6,136 nucleotides of DNA. Origin: a virus. The stretch spans positions 1 to 6,136 of the IMG/VR virus record IMGVR_UViG_3300020030_000005. One strand, written 5' to 3'. A model generated the notes under the pieces. It was not told the origin of the DNA. It was given only the letters and a program-made list of their open reading frames with translations, and did not search any database. Positions 1 to 6,136 of this stretch are shown here, one piece after another; positions within the stretch are counted from its first letter, which is position 1; every line of letters begins with the position of its first letter. The translations under genes were made by a program, and so were the position numbers.

Positions 1-97
1 ACTTCGTTCGGGGCGGTTCTCCGAACCGCGAAATGCGTCACCTCGCCACAATGGTGTAAACAATTGAATAAAGAACGATAGAAAAATGCGCGACCTC
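1..97. repeat. Left copy of an exact 97-nt terminal direct repeat (same as 6040..6136). This is a circular-genome assembly overlap, and the unit length is 6039 nt.
   Basis: Bases 1-97 (acttcgttcggggcggttctccgaaccgcg...aaaaatgcgcgacctc) reappear base-for-base at 6040-6136, running to the window edge. Gene content is a full microvirus complement. Confidence 0.95.
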
Positions 98-167
98 TCC
101 TGCAGTCGTTACCAATAACCTTCAGCAATTCACGAACTCTTGCAAAAGGGGTCCGCGCACGTAGCAT
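1..167 (-). CDS. 5' part (codons 1-55 plus 2 nt) of a junction-spanning 64-aa Arg-rich basic ORF. It continues at 6039 and stops at 6012. Hypothetical small basic, possibly DNA-binding, protein.
   Basis: I translated the minus strand by hand. ATG is at 167-165, and the in-frame upstream stop is TGA at 176-174. The frame stays open to base 1 and continues across the circular junction to TAA at 6014-6012. Product: MLRARTPFARVRELLKVIGNDCRRGRAFFYRSLFNCLHHCGEVTHFAVRRTAPNEVRVRHRSFP. It has 13 Arg, 1 Lys and 4 acidic residues. It starts 22 nt after the stop of the 98-aa gene and ends 12 nt before the ATG at 5999. It is missing from the ORF track only because the window is linearised inside it. Confidence 0.5.
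   Translation of the reverse strand, partial: MLRARTPFARVRELLKVIGNDCRRGRAFFYRSLFNCLHHCGEVTHFAVRRTAPNE
7..32. other. GC-rich stem-loop, also present at 6046..6071 as part of the duplicate. It lies inside the 64-aa ORF.
   Basis: gcggttc (13-19) pairs with gaaccgc (23-29) around a tcc loop. The stem is extended by ttc (7-9) pairing with gaa (30-32) across a ggg bulge. Confidence 0.5.
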
Positions 168-189
168 ATATCGTCAAGTAAAGAGGGTA

Positions 190-486
190 CTATTTTTCTT
201 CACCTTTAGAGGGTTTCGCAGCAGACTTCGACCTATCTATCTCTGAATCAATGAGTTCCTGACCAACCTCGAGGCCATCGAACTTATCCATACGGGAGAA
301 CGAATTAGGGTCGAAATCAATCTCGGGATTGAACTTATCACCCTTATCAAAATCAGAAGGTTCTACCACTACATCCGGACGGCCAGGAAGGACGTCGACA
401 GAACCAGAACCATCAAGAACGGAGAGAATGCGCTGACCGCGAGAAACGTAGGCGGGAGCATCTTCAAGTAACCAGTTAAGTGCCAT
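190..486 (-). CDS. Hypothetical acidic 98-aa protein immediately downstream of VP1
   Basis: ATG at 486-484 lies 12 nt after the VP1 stop. The gene is on the same strand as all hallmark genes. It has 21 Asp+Glu against 12 Lys+Arg, with Asp-rich stretches (EPSDFDKGDKFNPEIDFDPNSF). I recognise no family. Confidence 0.7.
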   Translation of the reverse strand: MALNWLLEDAPAYVSRGQRILSVLDGSGSVDVLPGRPDVVVEPSDFDKGDKFNPEIDFDPNSFSRMDKFDGLEVGQELIDSEIDRSKSAAKPSKGEEK

Positions 487-498
487 AAGATCAATGTG

Positions 499-2289
499 TT
501 AACGATTAGACAAACGAGTTGCAAATGTTTTATTAACCAGGTTCTTCTTCTGGACAGAATACGAAAGATTGACAAAGAAGTTATCTTCCAGGTTGGAGTA
601 AAACGGAGAGTTTACCTGACCAACGTCCACGAACAAAAGGGAATAATACTTATTATAGCTCGCCGACAGAACACGCTGTTGAACCCAATAACTATAAAGA
701 GGAATAGAGCCGTGGCTCGTTTGGAATCGAGACAGCTGACCAAGAACCTCGTCAAACGAGGACCGAAACTCGTTGAAACACGGTTCGTAGGCCACAGCTT
801 CCGAGGCCGAAGTGGTTCCGAATCCGAATTGGAATCCGGGAACGTCTTGATACCCAATGTCATTATAGATCGGATTAAAATAATCGGCACCAGTATAATG
901 GAGATAGTCAGGGTAAACACCGGCCCAATAGTAGACGGGGCGAATGCTCAGCATATCAATCATATAGCCAGGCTCGCGGAAGTAATAAGACTGACGGCGA
1001 CCGAGACGATCATTGAAAGCAATAGAGCCGCCCTGCTGACCGAGCGGGCCCATCGACGAATCGCCGCCAAAATTGTTAAATCCGGCCTGATTCATAATAA
1101 TCTGAACGTTAACAGCCTGAGATGCGCTAAACAGCAATTTAGGCCGATCGACGTGTTCGATTTTTGAAGCAAAAAAGGTCTCCAACCAATCACTATAACG
1201 AGAACCGCCAGCACCAAGTAGATCTTTATATTCCTGAAGCCGCGAAGCAATAGCCAGCTGCGGTATGGTAGAAACGCCGGACATGGAGATACCTTCGGAA
1301 CTACCAACAGGAAGCAATCGACTATAGCGATCGGGATTCGAAGGTATAACGGCCATCGGATGGGCAACAAGGAACGATCCAAGCGTAGTAACAGTTGTAT
1401 CGGCAGCGGCAGTAGCGAATTGACTTGCAGGACCCGCGGTGGATAGCGTAGTACTTCCGGGATAAATGGTAGAGACGGGGTAACCATCTTTGGATGCGGT
1501 AATCGTAGTGCCAAGGTCTGAAAGCAATATCTGAGAGAAGAGATTTCCTCTGTTATATGTATTGTTCGACGACGGCACAGACGAAGGATAGAATTGACTC
1601 TCAAAATAAGCGTCTAGGAATTCAAGACTCCCGAATCTTTGCGAGAAAAACGTCATCTTGTCACTAAACTGAGGAACATTATACGCAGCACCGGTACTAT
1701 TGGGAATGAAATACCAAGAACTAGGCCAAGCGAAAGAATAGAGTCCCCACTGGGAATAACTGTAGTAATTGCGAACAATGTCCCAATAAGCAAGATAAGA
1801 ATCGGCATTACACCAACCTAAAGGATACGCCAACTGAGCCGTTGTGAGATTAGAAGACATCGGAACATTACTCGAGGTCGTAGCCGGTATAGACGCGGGA
1901 ATAACGCGCAACCAACGAAGCAGCGAATTAGAATAAGGATAGTTGTTGGTCGTAAATTCGTACGAACCAGTAGAAGAAGAGGCAATAAAATTCAAACTCA
2001 AATCGTTCATATCAAACTTACTACTGTTCGTTCGCATCTCCGGATGGTACAGCTGCAAAGGCACCCAGAAACGGTGAAGTCGAATGGTGTAGGGGTTAAA
2101 TGACGGAACAGCGAGGGGGTTACTACGAACGTCGATGCCTTGCTCGATGGACACACGGTCTCGAGCATTGATAAAGTCAATTCGCACTGGATACAAAATA
2201 CCCGGTGTGCACGTAAAAGCTTTACTCTCAGGAACATCATAACGAGAGTAGCCATTAACGGCGTGAGAAATAAAAGGTTGTTTTCCCAT
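499..2289 (-). CDS. VP1: Microviridae major capsid protein (VP1 / F-like jelly-roll)
   Basis: 596 aa with an ATG start. The N-terminal strand pattern is typical of gokushovirus-type VP1 (FTCTPGILYPVRIDF...RLHRFWVPLQLY, compare TTFDAGYLIPI...FFVPLRL). Conserved C-terminal blocks are YYFREPGYMIDMLSIRPVYYWAG and YEPCFNEFRSSFDEVLGQL...YSYW. It sits 3 nt downstream of the Rep stop. Confidence 0.95.
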   Translation of the reverse strand: MGKQPFISHAVNGYSRYDVPESKAFTCTPGILYPVRIDFINARDRVSIEQGIDVRSNPLAVPSFNPYTIRLHRFWVPLQLYHPEMRTNSSKFDMNDLSLNFIASSSTGSYEFTTNNYPYSNSLLRWLRVIPASIPATTSSNVPMSSNLTTAQLAYPLGWCNADSYLAYWDIVRNYYSYSQWGLYSFAWPSSWYFIPNSTGAAYNVPQFSDKMTFFSQRFGSLEFLDAYFESQFYPSSVPSSNNTYNRGNLFSQILLSDLGTTITASKDGYPVSTIYPGSTTLSTAGPASQFATAAADTTVTTLGSFLVAHPMAVIPSNPDRYSRLLPVGSSEGISMSGVSTIPQLAIASRLQEYKDLLGAGGSRYSDWLETFFASKIEHVDRPKLLFSASQAVNVQIIMNQAGFNNFGGDSSMGPLGQQGGSIAFNDRLGRRQSYYFREPGYMIDMLSIRPVYYWAGVYPDYLHYTGADYFNPIYNDIGYQDVPGFQFGFGTTSASEAVAYEPCFNEFRSSFDEVLGQLSRFQTSHGSIPLYSYWVQQRVLSASYNKYYSLLFVDVGQVNSPFYSNLEDNFFVNLSYSVQKKNLVNKTFATRLSNR

Positions 2290-2292
2290 AAA

Positions 2293-3363
2293 TTAAATGT
2301 TTAGTTGAAGTTTATAATGATCTCTCCAAAACTGAAGAACATCCAGGTCTAGCCAAGTAGGGGGGTCAAAATCGGGCATCTTGCGAGAGGACGCGGCAAA
2401 ACGCATCATTTGCTTTTGCTCCCACGTATACGACGCTCTACGGGATACGGAGGAATTGAGGCCGAACCGCTCAACACACAGAGACACAACACGCTTAACC
2501 AGAGAAGACTTGCTAAAACGTGCATAAGCATCAGCAGCGGTAATCGAGCGCGAAACGTCGTCTTCCTGTTTGAGATACTTAAGATAATATCGAGGAATCG
2601 AGTAGTTATAATTGATACGCTTCTCAAAATCGAAATAAGACCACGACGAAGTACGAGCAGAAGGGCGAGGCATATAACCAAGAAAATCACCAACGCCAGC
2701 AGATACGAATTTTCGCGTATAACGGCGATGTTGGAGGAGGCAAGATAAAGGTGTATAGTTTCCATCTATGGTAACAAATTTGTCCGAAATTTCTTCGGGA
2801 TTAAACTGAATCTGTTTAGTAACATACTTAACGCAGTAACGAGCACGCTTATGGGTAGCCTTCGCTAACCAGACAAAACCAAGATCGCGGACGGCCGCTC
2901 GAATCTGATTATACATACAATTGGTTCCGAACAGGAAACCGTGGAAATGTAGACGAGGCGCCAAGCCTGTTTCCGGGTGAGTGCCGAACTCTTGGAAAAA
3001 CGCGTGCTTAAAAGAGTGTCCGAGCGTGTGACGAACTCGCTCATTCCATCGCCGAATAAACTTAGAGGGGTTCAGCAATGCTTCATTGTAATACGCAGGA
3101 GCTATGGTTATCGTAATAAAAATAGCCTGCTGAGACTCAGCCTTACAACGAGCGAGTTCGCGTTCCAACCGAACGAACCAATCATTGCGCTGACGACGCA
3201 AACAGTCTTCGCACTTTCCGCAGGGGACCATAAGCCACTGACGGGCGACATCCCAGGGACGGAGGGCCAAAGCGGACTTTGCAACGTCAGAGCCGTTACG
3301 ACAGGGATTCTTCTTGTCGAAATAGCGACGATTGCGTATCCATATGGGCGACGAGCAAGGCAT
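2293..3363 (-). CDS. VP4: Rolling-circle replication initiation protein (VP4 / phiX A-like HUH endonuclease)
   Basis: 356 aa. The N-terminal Cys cluster PCGKCEDC is at nt 3202-3225. Motif 1 FITITI is at nt 3103-3120. The HUH motif LHFH(GFLF) is at nt 2941-2952. The double-Tyr catalytic motif YCVKYVTK (Y-x3-Y, as in phiX174 A YVAKYVNK) is at nt 2815-2838. Confidence 0.93.
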   Translation of the reverse strand: MPCSSPIWIRNRRYFDKKNPCRNGSDVAKSALALRPWDVARQWLMVPCGKCEDCLRRQRNDWFVRLERELARCKAESQQAIFITITIAPAYYNEALLNPSKFIRRWNERVRHTLGHSFKHAFFQEFGTHPETGLAPRLHFHGFLFGTNCMYNQIRAAVRDLGFVWLAKATHKRARYCVKYVTKQIQFNPEEISDKFVTIDGNYTPLSCLLQHRRYTRKFVSAGVGDFLGYMPRPSARTSSWSYFDFEKRINYNYSIPRYYLKYLKQEDDVSRSITAADAYARFSKSSLVKRVVSLCVERFGLNSSVSRRASYTWEQKQMMRFAASSRKMPDFDPPTWLDLDVLQFWRDHYKLQLNI

Positions 3364-3563
3364 TACAATAAACTTCTAAGACAGTCAAATCTAATAGCAG
3401 GATAATCGAGACGACAGCGAATGAGGTAATCATTAGCGGGTTCTTCGTCGGCAAACCAGGCGATAACAACTCGCTTCTTACCGCGATATGCTGCAATAGA
3501 AAAACGATAGGGAATACTGTTAATCACAGGAGAAAAACGGGGACGAAAATCAAACTTATCCAT
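3363..3563 (-). CDS. Hypothetical 66-aa protein translationally coupled to VP4
   Basis: ATG at 3563-3561. The stop TAA (3365-3363) overlaps the VP4 ATG (3363-3361) as TAATG. No alternative in-frame ATG/GTG/TTG occurs upstream before the in-frame TAG. I recognise no family. Confidence 0.6.
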   Translation of the reverse strand: MDKFDFRPRFSPVINSIPYRFSIAAYRGKKRVVIAWFADEEPANDYLIRCRLDYPAIRFDCLRSLL

Positions 3564-3582
3564 AATCGTAGAATAATACTTT

Positions 3583-3611
3583 GCGCTTCGAAAGACGGTA
3601 CTTTCGAGCGC
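3583..3611. other. Stem-loop of 11 bp with one bulge and a 6-nt loop, located in the long intergenic region
   Basis: gcgct(t)cgaaag at 3583-3594 pairs with ctttcgagcgc at 3601-3611. The loop is acggta. Confidence 0.6.
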
Positions 3612-3631
3612 GAGAACTACTTCGTTCCGCC

Positions 3632-3672
3632 GGCCGACCGCCTAACGGCGGGGACGCTGCGCGTCTTCGGCC
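3632..3672. other. GC-rich three-way junction (Y-shaped fold) of 16 bp within 41 nt
   Basis: The outer stem is ggccga (3632-3637) with tcggcc (3667-3672). Arm 1 is ccgcc (3638-3642) with ggcgg (3647-3651), loop taac. Arm 2 is gacgc (3653-3657) with gcgtc (3661-3665), loop tgc. All pairings were read directly and hold on either strand. Confidence 0.55.
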
Positions 3673-3699
3673 TCCATGGCTCCACTTCGTGGTCTATAT

Positions 3700-3715
3700 A
3701 CCGGATAAATCCGGT
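3700..3715. other. Perfect 6-bp hairpin with a tetraloop. On the coding strand it is followed by TATATAG.
   Basis: accgga (3700-3705), loop taaa, tccggt (3710-3715). Confidence 0.5.
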
Positions 3716-3727
3716 GAGTTTGCGGAC

Positions 3728-3763
3728 AAAAAACTCCCAAGGAGAGAAAACCTCTCCCGGGAG
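3728..3763 (-). terminator. Rho-independent terminator downstream of the 107-aa gene
   Basis: The coding strand reads CTCCC-G-GGAGAG-GTTTT-CTCTCC-TT-GGGAG followed by TTTTTT. That is 11 bp of G/C-rich stem (3734-3738 with 3759-3763, and 3741-3746 with 3752-3757) plus a T6 tract (3733-3728). It begins 45 nt after the stop at 3809-3811. Confidence 0.7.
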
Positions 3764-3808
3764 CTTCACGGTCAAAGAACTCTTCCACCAAGAGGGCGGA
3801 TTACAACT

Positions 3809-4132
3809 TTAGCTCCTCTTCCTTTCTTCTTTCGGCGTGCTTTCATCGGAATCGAGATTAAAATCAAACATAAGGACCAGTGTATTATCGAAAAAATCGA
3901 CCGAAAAATGCGGATAGGCGGCAAGGTCAACTAAGAGACGAGAGACAAGGCTATGGGGAATATAAGGCATATCCGAAATAGCCGAACGAACGAAGTGACC
4001 GAAAATGGGAGTATCCTCGAAGATATTCAGGGACAACGGCGAAAACTGCCCATCTTTAAGATAGCCGACATGGGCAAGGTCAACATCAAGAGCCGGATTA
4101 ACGCGGCGAAGAACGATATGAATCTGTGTCAT
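3809..4132 (-). CDS. Hypothetical 107-aa protein with an acidic C-terminal tail, in the VP3-equivalent position
   Basis: I prefer the ATG at 4132-4130 (MTQIHIVLRR...), which lies 11 nt after the upstream stop. The longer track ORF (to 4204) starts on TTG and would overlap the upstream gene by 61 nt. The C-terminus is FDFNLDSDESTPKEERKRS. I recognise no family. Confidence 0.6.
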   Translation of the reverse strand: MTQIHIVLRRVNPALDVDLAHVGYLKDGQFSPLSLNIFEDTPIFGHFVRSAISDMPYIPHSLVSRLLVDLAAYPHFSVDFFDNTLVLMFDFNLDSDESTPKEERKRS

Positions 4133-4143
4133 AACAATGTAAT

Positions 4144-4464
4144 TTAAATTTGCGATTGAAATCTGAGATAAAAACGCTTCCAAGCTTCGGAATATTTTCT
4201 CCAAAAATCATAACCCTCGGGCGTCGTATCAAACAAGAAAGCGGTGGAAATGAGGTAGGTAGGGCCTAAACTCGGGTTGCAAAGAGAACGCCGAATATGG
4301 GCGCGCAAACGTTCACGAAAACCCCCGTAGGGCGAAACGACGACATCGTAGTTCGTCTTAAAGGCGACGAATAACCTATGGCGAACGAGCCACTCGGTAA
4401 ACGCGTACTCGAGAACGTCGACAATCAAATCGCCAGCCTTAAAACTTTTACTGTCCTTTTTCAT
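4144..4464 (-). CDS. Hypothetical 106-aa basic protein
   Basis: I prefer the internal ATG at 4464-4462 (MKKDSKSFKAGDLIV...). It lies downstream of the VP2 stop and of a TAnnTTTG box. The track ORF start at 4764 would overlap VP2 by 221 nt. I recognise no family. Confidence 0.65.
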   Translation of the reverse strand: MKKDSKSFKAGDLIVDVLEYAFTEWLVRHRLFVAFKTNYDVVVSPYGGFRERLRAHIRRSLCNPSLGPTYLISTAFLFDTTPEGYDFWRKYSEAWKRFYLRFQSQI

Positions 4465-4489
4465 AGTATTGTGGTTATTGGTTACGACA

Positions 4490-4497
4490 CAAAAATA
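4490..4497 (-). promoter_or_regulatory. Candidate Bacteroidota-type -7 promoter element (TAnnTTTG)
   Basis: The coding strand reads TATTTTTG, an exact match to TAnnTTTG. It sits in the 79-nt VP2/106-aa spacer, 25 nt upstream of the ATG at 4464. A TTTG lies further upstream (in AACTTTTTGAAC), but its 26-nt spacing is longer than the canonical -33 position. Confidence 0.4.
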
Positions 4498-4543
4498 CGA
4501 CACAAGAAACAAGCGATAAAGTTCAAAAAGTTGGGGGACTTGT

Positions 4544-5806
4544 TCAATTCCTCCTAAAATAGCTGCGGCGAGTGTATGTAGCACCAATTTGATCTCCGGA
4601 AGGGCCGTAAACGTCGCGCATCTCTTCATAACCCTCGGGTCCTGCAGGACCTGCAGCCTTGCGGCCGACGTACGAGGCGCCGGCAATGCCGGCAGCGGCA
4701 GCAAAAGAACGAACGACGTCATGAGCGAGACGAAGTCGAGAATTGCGCAAATCCCAACGGACATTGCCTGTTTCGAGCTGAGCAGTCTCGGCGGCGGCAG
4801 TCTTCAGGATAGCCAGAGTCTCTGCCACCTTCATGATCTTCGTCTCAACAACTTCACCCTTCTCATTGCGTATCTGAACAGGGACGTCTTTTTCCCAGTT
4901 GAGCTCATACCACTTTTGTAAATCCTTGAGCTCCTGAGCATTAAGAGCCCTGCGAGAGTCAGATTCAGCCGCGGCGGCAACATTAGCAATCGCAGAACTC
5001 CAAGCAACAGCGAGGGCGGCGCCAGCTTGCGGGGCAAACCAATCGTTCGTCTGACGAAGGTAGTTGTATTTTTCCTCCAAAATTCCTGTCATGGCCATAA
5101 TAGAGGAGAGCTTGTAACCTTGCGAAATATCAGCCAAATAGGCCTCGATAGACATAATTTGAGCTTGCGCTTCATGCAATCTTGCAATTTCACTTGCATC
5201 CTTAACGTTATGTCGGGCAATCTGCAATTCGAGATCATCCATCTGCGCTCGCCACTCTTGCGTATGAGTATTACCTCGAAGATTAGCAGCTTCTGCATTA
5301 TCTCGATTAGCAGCGGCAGAATTACGATCAACCGTAGAGCGAGCGATCATATTCTGTGCAACAGCCGTGGGATCACCAGGGGAAAAAACGCCAGCGCCAA
5401 CAGGCGAACCGCCTGAAGGACCGGAGGCGGAAGGCATAGACGCAGAACCTCCAGACATGGTAGCATTTACGCCAACGCCAGAAGAGCCTAAGACTGCAGC
5501 AGGTGTAACACCGGCCTTCAAATAGCGATCGAAAACCTTCGTAGGGTCATTATACGCGTTCTCGTAATCGAACTGCTTCTGCCAATTAGCATAGGAAAGC
5601 TCAGATTGTTTTTGCATTTGCTCCAAAGCATACTGCTGTTGAAGCTTCATCTGTTTCTGCTGATATTTCCACTGGCGACGAGCGCTCATGCCGCCAAAAA
5701 GCTGGCCAAAGATGCCGTTAATAAGGCCTGTAGTTCCAGTAGAGGCAGCGGATTCGCCAAGAGCGCGACCAAAAGAACTCGAGGCAGCAGCAATAGGAGT
5801 AGGCAT
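4544..5806 (-). CDS. VP2: DNA pilot / minor capsid protein (VP2, phiX H-like)
   Basis: 420 aa. The N-terminus is Ala/Gly-rich with a glycine zipper, GLINGIFGQLFGG (nt 5690-5728). A Gln/Lys-rich helical segment follows (QWKYQQKQMKLQQQYALEQMQKQ), then the YLKAGVTPAAVLG motif typical of microvirus VP2, then a Gly/Ser-rich linker (nt 5375-5488) and long Ala-rich helical regions. Size and position relative to VP1 and VP4 fit VP2. Confidence 0.85.
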   Translation of the reverse strand: MPTPIAAASSSFGRALGESAASTGTTGLINGIFGQLFGGMSARRQWKYQQKQMKLQQQYALEQMQKQSELSYANWQKQFDYENAYNDPTKVFDRYLKAGVTPAAVLGSSGVGVNATMSGGSASMPSASGPSGGSPVGAGVFSPGDPTAVAQNMIARSTVDRNSAAANRDNAEAANLRGNTHTQEWRAQMDDLELQIARHNVKDASEIARLHEAQAQIMSIEAYLADISQGYKLSSIMAMTGILEEKYNYLRQTNDWFAPQAGAALAVAWSSAIANVAAAAESDSRRALNAQELKDLQKWYELNWEKDVPVQIRNEKGEVVETKIMKVAETLAILKTAAAETAQLETGNVRWDLRNSRLRLAHDVVRSFAAAAGIAGASYVGRKAAGPAGPEGYEEMRDVYGPSGDQIGATYTRRSYFRRN

Positions 5807-5807
5807 A

Positions 5808-5999
5808 CTACAAGTGAGTTAATTTGTTAGAACGAATAATGTAATCAACGCGAACAGTGTCGATATGAACGCCGCTACGCTGCATCCTAGCTTGAGCGGA
5901 ACATGAGGCAAGAAAAAAAGTAGCCAATGCAGCAATAATAGACGAAACGAGTGTCCAAAAAGCCTTTGATTTATAGAACGGTTGTTTAACGTCTGACAT
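5808..5999 (-). CDS. Small predicted lipoprotein (63-aa precursor, 31-aa mature form)
   Basis: ATG at 5999-5997. It has a Lys-containing n-region (KQPFYKSK) and a hydrophobic h-region (AFWTLVSSIIAALATFF). A canonical lipobox L-A-S-C places Cys33 at nt 5903-5901. The stop TAG (5810-5808) is 1 nt from the VP2 ATG. Confidence 0.7.
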   Translation of the reverse strand: MSDVKQPFYKSKAFWTLVSSIIAALATFFLASCSAQARMQRSGVHIDTVRVDYIIRSNKLTHL

Positions 6000-6011
6000 G
6001 ATAGTAAAAAT

Positions 6012-6136
6012 TTAAGGGAAGCTACGGTGCCGCACCCTCACTTCGTTCGGGGCGGTTCTCCGAACCGCGAAATGCGTCACCTCGCCACAATGGTGTAAAC
6101 AATTGAATAAAGAACGATAGAAAAATGCGCGACCTC
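6012..6136 (-). CDS. 3' part of the same 64-aa Arg-rich ORF as it appears at the right end of the window. Bases 6040-6136 duplicate 1-97, and the unique part is 6012-6039.
   Basis: The same reading frame is open from the window edge down to TAA at 6014-6012. The C-terminal residues ...NEVRVRHRSFP were read directly. Confidence 0.5.
   Translation of the reverse strand, partial: GRAFFYRSLFNCLHHCGEVTHFAVRRTAPNEVRVRHRSFP
6040..6136. repeat. Right copy of the 97-nt terminal direct repeat (duplicate of 1..97)
   Basis: Exact identity to 1-97 read directly from the sequence. It is not an independent locus. Confidence 0.95.

Follow-up and report, generated by a model that had tools for sequence, protein, structure and literature searches.

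What does a microvirus gain from a very small lipoprotein gene placed immediately ahead of the gene for its DNA pilot protein? The question is raised by a 6,136-nucleotide stretch of viral DNA (the window; positions 1 to 6,136 of IMG/VR record IMGVR_UViG_3300020030_000005), which carries on its minus strand, at 5808-5999, an open reading frame (ORF) of 63 codons plus a TAG stop, termed here Lpp. An earlier note on this DNA had proposed its product as a candidate lysis or superinfection-exclusion factor. Lpp is a real gene: it codes for a protein on which strong purifying selection acts, and it belongs to the core genes of a gut microvirus clade. From its sequence features, its product is very probably a lipoprotein. 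Its role is tentatively read as that of an envelope-directed lysis or release effector, and this reading is favoured over superinfection exclusion.

The Lpp ORF, delimited from the ORF list, its conservation, and 359 homologs, starts with an ATG at 5999, stops with the TAG at 5810-5808, and encodes the 63-residue product MSDVKQPFYKSKAFWTLVSSIIAALATFFLASCSAQARMQRSGVHIDTVRVDYIIRSNKLTHL. The signal peptide predicted by a PROSITE-type rule (residues 1-32; 5904-5999, minus strand) comprises a basic n-region, MSDVKQPFYKSKAFW, and an h-region, TLVSSIIAALATFFLAS, with a hydrophobic core of 17-19 residues. It runs into the lipobox L30-A31-S32-C33 (5901-5912), which stands out by column conservation. 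The codon of Cys33 (5903-5901) is the predicted site of lipidation and cleavage, which would leave a mature lipopeptide of 31 residues, CSAQARMQRSGVHIDTVRVDYIIRSNKLTHL (5811-5903). Invariant columns define a conserved core within it, R41-x-G43-V-H45-x-D47-T-V-R-V-D-Y53...R56-S57. A single base (5807) separates the Lpp stop from the ATG of the pilot protein gene VP2 at 5806, the two genes meeting in a TAG-T-ATG junction (5804-5810). The elements listed in the earlier note, namely a 63-residue ORF one nucleotide ahead of the pilot gene, a basic n-region followed by a hydrophobic core and the lipobox LAS-C, and a mature lipopeptide of 31 residues with the sequence given there, are all recovered.

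Lpp satisfies a PROSITE PS51257-type rule (K or R in the first seven residues, no charge in the six residues preceding the lipobox, and a Cys at position 15-35) with K5, F29-L30-A31-S32-C33, and Cys33. It possesses K5, K10, and K12, and is devoid of D, E, R, and K between W15 and C33. However, mononucleotide-shuffled windows contain on average 0.58 ORFs that satisfy the same rule, with at least one in 44% of the shuffles. The signal pattern taken alone is therefore not significant, and it is conservation that makes the feature real. An ORF of identical length, without indels or stops, is found in 81 of 81 close genomes (192-nucleotide version; 80 IMG/VR relatives of about 6 kb, L001-L080), and no Lpp pseudogene occurs among them. 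Entropy at codon positions 1, 2, and 3 amounts to 0.27, 0.14, and 1.12, respectively. The median ratio of non-synonymous to synonymous substitution rates (dN/dS) is 0.058, with a proportion of synonymous differences (pS) of 0.64, near saturation, which indicates selection on the protein and no overlapping constraint at the nucleotide level. A protein search returns 359 Lpp homologs, the best 120 of which display 84-95% identity. In related genomes, Lpp is 80-95% identical, as compared to 63-92% for the major capsid protein VP1 and 37-95% for VP2, and it is among the best conserved genes of the genome. The ratio of non-synonymous to synonymous differences (pN/pS) is lower in the signal peptide (0.09) than in the mature part (0.17), which is unusual for a mere targeting sequence.

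The lipobox is conserved to the same extent, with C33 and S32 found in 81 of the 81 close genomes and L30 in 80. Beyond these genomes, a profile search of 1.84 billion representatives yields 65 clusters, set at 50% identity, of which 63 are real; P0130 (2305 residues) and P0172 were rejected as spurious repeat matches. In 59 of the 63 clusters, a Ser, Gly, or Ala followed by a Cys stands behind a hydrophobic segment (strict pattern), and two of the remaining four still possess a Cys. The earlier note had named homologs lacking the Cys or the lipobox as the finding that would speak for an ordinary transmembrane peptide; with these counts, the search for them brought no refutation.

The wider family has a modular organization. 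The signal peptide motif SKKFWTLVxAIVAALxAFF is kept across it, and two types of mature peptide are observed. Type A, that of the window, reads RxGVHxDTVRVDY..RS.N, its first part RxGVHxDTV being found family-wide, while type B reads.HRV.QSASxFxxGDxxxTxIxYEQxG. Type A is also found behind another signal peptide (L082, P0147, P0155), and the window-type signal peptide precedes a type B mature part in L083, P0173, and P0179. A third signal is combined with type B in Dulem virus 210 (L084, PP511404), directly upstream of VP2. There, a lipoprotein-like ORF of 78 residues (2392-2628), with ..LFGFFCSC followed by SSSHRVMQSASTFKVGD.., stops 4 nucleotides short of VP2, occupying the slot that Lpp has in the window, and its signal peptide is unrelated. 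Two mature types and at least three unrelated signal peptides are thus combined, and the modules are always joined at the Cys, as expected if cleavage and lipidation at this residue separate two parts.

When prokaryotes were scanned with one genome for each species, family members were found only in two Alistipes genomes. They belong to microvirus prophages of 5.7-6.0 kb, one in A. montrealensis kh20 (L081) and the other in an Alistipes metagenome-assembled genome (L082). Both prophages are bounded by dif-like direct repeats, located at 9878-9898 and 15608-15628 in L081 (span of 5,730 bp, sequence TTACTATTATGTTAAATAATA) and at 9510-9530 and 15496-15516 in L082, and their GC content of 0.43-0.44 contrasts with that of the flanks (0.50-0.60). 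Lpp comes first, followed by two small genes, Rep, VP1, a small gene, and VP2. This order differs from that of the window, as VP2 comes after VP1 in the prophages and after Lpp in the window. No dif-like site of this type is found in the window, and no Shine-Dalgarno sequence precedes the Lpp ATG. The lack of a Shine-Dalgarno sequence fits translation in Bacteroidota. Together with the Lpp-bearing, dif-flanked prophages, it supports a Bacteroidota host, which the earlier note had raised as a condition and which is now probable.

In Bacteroidota, lipoproteins are exported to the cell surface by means of an acidic motif following the Cys: CS(D/E)2-3, K(D/E)2, or QA(D/E)2 (PMC6222051). This motif is absent from the window, where the sequence is C-S-A-Q-A-R, and none of the 59 family members with a located Cys has at least two D or E at positions +2 to +5. 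The argument of the earlier note against a surface-export signal is thereby extended to the family. The lack of an acidic motif leads to the prediction that the lipopeptide faces the periplasm, likely in a Bacteroidota host. It may be retained in the inner membrane or be located in the outer membrane, both being compatible with the data.

In the window's clade, the TA(G/A)-T-ATG junction of Lpp and VP2 is found in 80 of 80 related genomes, across both N-terminal types of VP2 (MP/MA.PxAAA, n=56, and MRLIDFKSYV, n=24, among L001-L080). Its conservation despite the two VP2 types suggests translational coupling, probably through termination and re-initiation, as judged from the junction sequence. 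The layout described in the earlier note, with Lpp one nucleotide upstream of VP2, therefore holds for this clade and not for distant relatives, in which the gene is located elsewhere. Mature positions 38-42 and 60-63 track the N-terminal type of VP2, and the variable positions of the signal peptide do not. Synonymous sites in the invariant stretch between these two groups of positions display little association. The covariation of Lpp and VP2 is either functional or the result of linkage or lineage structure. Lpp does not track the VP1 type.

How such a lipopeptide might act can be formulated as follows. The 32-residue signal peptide would bring the precursor to the inner membrane; Cys33 would be lipidated, and signal peptidase II would cut before it, leaving a 31-residue lipopeptide facing the periplasm. 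Through its core RxGVHxDTVRVDY, the lipopeptide would attach to a conserved component of envelope or peptidoglycan biogenesis, located in the periplasm or in a membrane, and growing cells would burst as a result. The unusually conserved signal peptide may also contribute as a membrane peptide. Such a mechanism would follow the single-gene-lysis logic of phiX174 E, acting from the periplasm through a molecule built like a colicin lysis lipoprotein. In a narrower and rather doubtful version, Lpp would be the first lipoprotein-type single-gene lysis protein, the invariant RxGVHxDTVRVDY core of its 31-residue lipopeptide inhibiting a conserved component of Bacteroidota envelope or peptidoglycan biogenesis and its conserved, cleaved signal peptide perhaps representing a second membrane-active product.

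A role in lysis or release is favoured by the distribution of the gene and by the content of the genomes that carry it. Among the matches listed, a family member is present in 20 of 20 GenBank microviruses whose Rep is at least 46% identical, 19 being detected by tblastn and MG945170 by a hidden Markov model (HMM) of the family. Searches of Pfam and PHROGs reveal no lysis enzyme, peptidase, endolysin, or holin in the window, and, apart from Lpp, no gene-strand ORF encoding a membrane segment stays open in 80 of 80 relatives. A 119-residue ORF in the +1 frame of Rep (2765-2406, minus strand), with a strong membrane segment and open in 75 of the 80, was rejected as evidence. A +1 open run at least as long appears in 47% of the synonymous Rep resamplings (P = 0.47), so that chance, given the sequence and codon usage of Rep, would account for a run of this length.

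In some other microviruses, an M15 peptidase has been put forward as the enzyme responsible for lysis (PMC3394797). A search of 95 loci with Lpp, those of both Alistipes prophages among them, finds no M15 peptidase, and the Lpp family is absent from the 7 examined microviruses possessing an M15 peptidase, among which is the cultured Bacteroides phage phiHBP1. A core gene in genomes devoid of peptidase or endolysin, and M15 carriers devoid of Lpp, together favour lysis or release. The near-invariant mature core suggests, at the level of sequence, binding to a conserved host partner. In phiHBP1 itself (L101, PV598014), the only cultured Bacteroides microvirus, the M15-type peptidase is encoded at 84-488 and lacks a signal peptide.

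Several observations weigh against lysis or release by Lpp. The complementarity between Lpp and M15 peptidases is confounded by phylogeny, and no replacement of one by the other is found within a clade. The sister genomes bajarodmic virus 17 and 159 possess neither Lpp nor a peptidase, which means that Lpp is not a universal requirement. The single-gene lysis proteins known so far generally show little conservation, and their genes often lie within other genes, whereas Lpp is free-standing and among the best conserved genes of its genome. In these genomes, the +1 frames contain hardly any stops and encode hydrophobic sequence, so that an embedded E-like lysis gene may exist. As regards the lipoprotein nature of Lpp, the Pfam LPAM_1 model matches it below threshold (10.4 bits for a cut-off of 20, E of 0.99). 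Finally, AlphaFold2, run with a 60-sequence alignment, returns one long helix at low confidence, with a predicted local distance difference test (pLDDT) score of 73 and values of 58-75 in the mature part. This model is judged uninformative; residue propensities alone give the impression of a β-hairpin for the mature peptide.

LPAM_1 is the sole Pfam match of Lpp at E values of up to 10, and searches of Pfam, PHROGs, and NCBIfam return nothing above threshold, the NCBIfam model lipo_YgdI_YgdR aligning with the signal region at an E of 0.19. A profile search of PDB sequences with Lpp returns nothing, and an exact-sequence look-up of the window's Lpp protein finds it not on record. The closest analogues are the colicin lysis lipoproteins for size and architecture, phiX174 E for biology, and Llp, Cor, and Rz1 as precedents of phage lipoproteins; Lpp is a member of none of these groups.

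Colicin lysis proteins, or bacteriocin release proteins (PF02402, Lysis_col), resemble Lpp in having a precursor of ~45-63 residues with a signal peptidase II signal and a mature lipopeptide of ~30 residues, the 31 residues of Lpp lying within the 27-35 range used as the length criterion. They also share with Lpp a tiny replicon and a large product that has to leave a Gram-negative cell. In release proteins, the signal peptide is a stable product with a function of its own, and that of Lpp is unusually conserved. However, the two display no sequence similarity, with no PF02402 match even at E values of up to 10. Release proteins are plasmid-borne in Enterobacteria, whereas Lpp is phage-borne and associated with Bacteroidota. 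Furthermore, release proteins depend on OmpLA, and the release of a virion of 25-30 nm also requires breaching the peptidoglycan.

PhiX174 E belongs to the same virus family, in which it serves a very small genome without a muralytic enzyme. Both E and Lpp are small proteins targeted to membranes, in which the hydrophobic N-terminal segment is conserved and the C-terminal parts can be exchanged. In contrast, E is no lipoprotein, its gene lies inside gene D, and it acts on MraY within the inner membrane, while Lpp is free-standing and highly conserved, with a conserved lipobox. No PHROG match indicates homology of Lpp to E. The o-spanins of the Rz1 type resemble Lpp as small lipoproteins encoded by phages, whose short mature part could reach the outer membrane. 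No partner i-spanin, holin, or endolysin gene is found in the window, and the mature peptide of Lpp contains no proline, unlike that of the proline-rich Rz1.

The phage lipoproteins T5 Llp, Cor (phi80, N15, HK022), and Ltp (Streptococcus phage TP-J34) lead to a different function, superinfection exclusion or progeny protection, in which the periplasmic lipopeptide would block a receptor or the incoming pilot or DNA-delivery step. Like Lpp, they are small lipoproteins of the periplasmic side encoded beside a host-entry gene, and the architecture of Lpp is that of the known exclusion lipoproteins T5 Llp, phi80/N15 Cor, and the Streptococcus prophage Ltp. VP2 is adjacent, with the coupled TAG-T-ATG junction kept in 80 of 80 genomes, and eight mature positions (38-42, 60-63) differ by VP2 type, while variable signal-peptide positions do not. 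Moreover, Lpp is the first gene inside attL of the two Alistipes prophages, the expected place of a conversion gene. Nevertheless, exclusion appears less likely than lysis or release. Exclusion genes are usually accessory, while Lpp is a core gene without pseudogenes in 81 genomes, and selection on it is strongly purifying, not diversifying. Its sequence is maintained while VP1 and VP2 are mosaic, it does not track VP1, and its covariation with VP2 is explicable by linkage or lineage structure. The mature part of Lpp is about half the size of those of Llp, Cor, and Ltp. No annotated PHROGs or Pfam family is matched that would indicate similarity to the Cor or Llp families, these libraries being assumed to include Cor/Llp models, and the window lacks the prophage-type dif-like site.

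Another envelope function is also conceivable, though with no great likelihood: Lpp would be a membrane-anchored partner of VP2, or an assembly or egress factor (e.g., in vesicle-mediated release), rather than a killer. The conserved stop-start junction implies co-expression of Lpp and VP2, Lpp covaries with the VP2 type, and the lower pN/pS of the signal peptide suggests a role for the membrane segment. However, Lpp is not beside VP2 in the Alistipes prophages and in "long-form" relatives, and VP2 has no signal peptide, with the consequence that the two products begin in different compartments. To our knowledge, a membrane-anchored pilot partner or egress factor of this type has no precedent in microviruses, which counts against such a function.

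An improbable explanation is that Lpp is not a lipoprotein at all but an uncleaved single-pass membrane peptide acting like the transmembrane domain of phiX174 E, its Cys being conserved for another reason. Conservation reaches furthest across the family in the hydrophobic segment, and the C-terminal parts are exchangeable, as known for E. The signal is long (32 residues), and some members display an odd sequence ahead of the Cys (e.g., LESC in L083, MEGC in P0176). Such a peptide would not account for a Ser, Gly, or Ala at position -1 and a Cys behind at least three unrelated hydrophobic segments, with the modules joined exactly there, and the PROSITE rule is satisfied. Ser at position -1 also matches Bacteroidota usage, which argues against an uncleaved peptide. 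As for a chance ORF, or the by-product of a conserved nucleotide element such as an origin or promoter, the frequency of lipobox patterns in shuffled sequence and the adjoining conserved non-coding motif are outweighed by near-saturated third and almost fixed first and second codon positions, by the lack of indels and stops in 81 genomes, and by homologs that keep the protein at different genomic positions, so that codon-position entropy and dN/dS refute it.

The 5' flank of the Lpp gene (6000-6136, minus strand) belongs to an intergenic region of 229 nucleotides, whose continuation on the circle is 1-189. The motif GCATTTTTCTATCGTTC, at 6112-6128 (also 73-89), stands upstream of Lpp in all 81 genomes and may belong to an origin or a promoter. 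Between this motif and the Lpp ATG lies an optional GC-rich insert of ~95 nucleotides, CCATTGTGGCGAGGTGACGC...GCACCGTAGCTTCCC (roughly 6013-6105, minus strand), present in about 18 of the 81 related genomes and twice in L060. An Rfam search of the window, insert included, returns no match, and the insert folds no better than its shuffles. Gene callers annotate an extended Lpp of 100 residues in many relatives. It results from the lack of a stop behind the motif GCATTTTTCTATCGTTC in these genomes, and in the window an in-frame TAA (6014-6012) breaks it. This longer form was rejected because the signal peptide must be N-terminal.

Extension at the other end is observed in about half of the wider family, where the Lpp ORF has no stop after the conserved part and runs ~130 codons further in the +1 frame of the next gene. 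The products reach 180-220 residues and possess a basic tail, ..RRGGRRGKPRPKxKTIPLGGSHL. Such forms are located at 9977-10585 in L081, 2432-3025 in L087, 1440-2027 in L091, and 154-726 in L095, and also occur in P0125-P0167. Given the overlapped protein, the extension frame is open in 5-31% of synonymous resamplings, depending on the lineage; as the +1 frame is generally stop-poor, selection for the extension is not established. The nearly stop-free +1 frames provide ample raw material for embedded E-like genes. An apparent fusion of Lpp and VP2 was rejected as an annotation artefact, since features named "similar to VP2" enter the Lpp gene off-frame in L102 (MG945680, 3402-5030) and L103 (MG945498, 3403-5028), in which the first ~85 residues are off-frame Lpp.

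The window ends in an identical direct repeat of 97 nucleotides (1-97 and 6040-6136) and therefore represents a circular microvirus genome of 6,039 nucleotides assembled with an overlap. Its recognisable genes are all on the minus strand and form a microvirus gene set according to Pfam and PHROGs, with VP1 at 499-2289, Rep/VP4 at 2293-3363, and, downstream of Lpp, VP2 at 4544-5806, identified by PHROG pilot-protein families. In GenBank, the genomes closest to it belong to faecal microviruses, for the most part of pigs, with a nucleotide identity of only 70-77%. VP1 falls into classes of ~69% and ~90% identity, independent of the Lpp and Rep sequences, and, together with the two VP2 N-terminal types, these indicate mosaic genomes shaped by recombination. 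An unannotated basic ORF of 24 residues, MKARRKKKGRGAKVVIRPLGGRVL (3772-3846, minus strand), is conserved in 73 of the 80 relatives. Its composition resembles that of small DNA-binding packaging proteins, presumably of the kind of phiX174 J and gokushovirus VP8.

A literature search found no description of a microvirus lipoprotein, in agreement with the statement of the earlier note that none had been characterised in this virus family. The only trace is an NCBI record, DAU60727.1, automatically named "MAG TPA: lipoprotein [Microviridae sp.]". Lpp thus represents a sequence-orphan family of small phage lipoproteins in a virus family without any studied lipoprotein. In the mammalian gut, microviruses rank with the most abundant phages, and their lysis is understood only for phiX174-like phages. 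Being core to one Bacteroidota-associated clade and absent from the examined peptidase carriers, Lpp provides a testable one-gene hypothesis for exit from the host. Two handles are available, namely the homolog carried by the dif-flanked 5.7-kb prophage of the cultured Alistipes montrealensis kh20 and, as a comparator, the cultured Bacteroides microvirus phiHBP1, which lacks the Lpp gene. If Lpp acted in exclusion instead, microviruses would have their first described factor of this kind. If the target of Lpp were an essential envelope component, Lpp would constitute a new "protein antibiotic" and reveal a new target in Bacteroidota. If lipoprotein-type lysis is true, it would account for the lysis of hosts by a large clade of gut microviruses and point to a new drug-like target in Bacteroidota.

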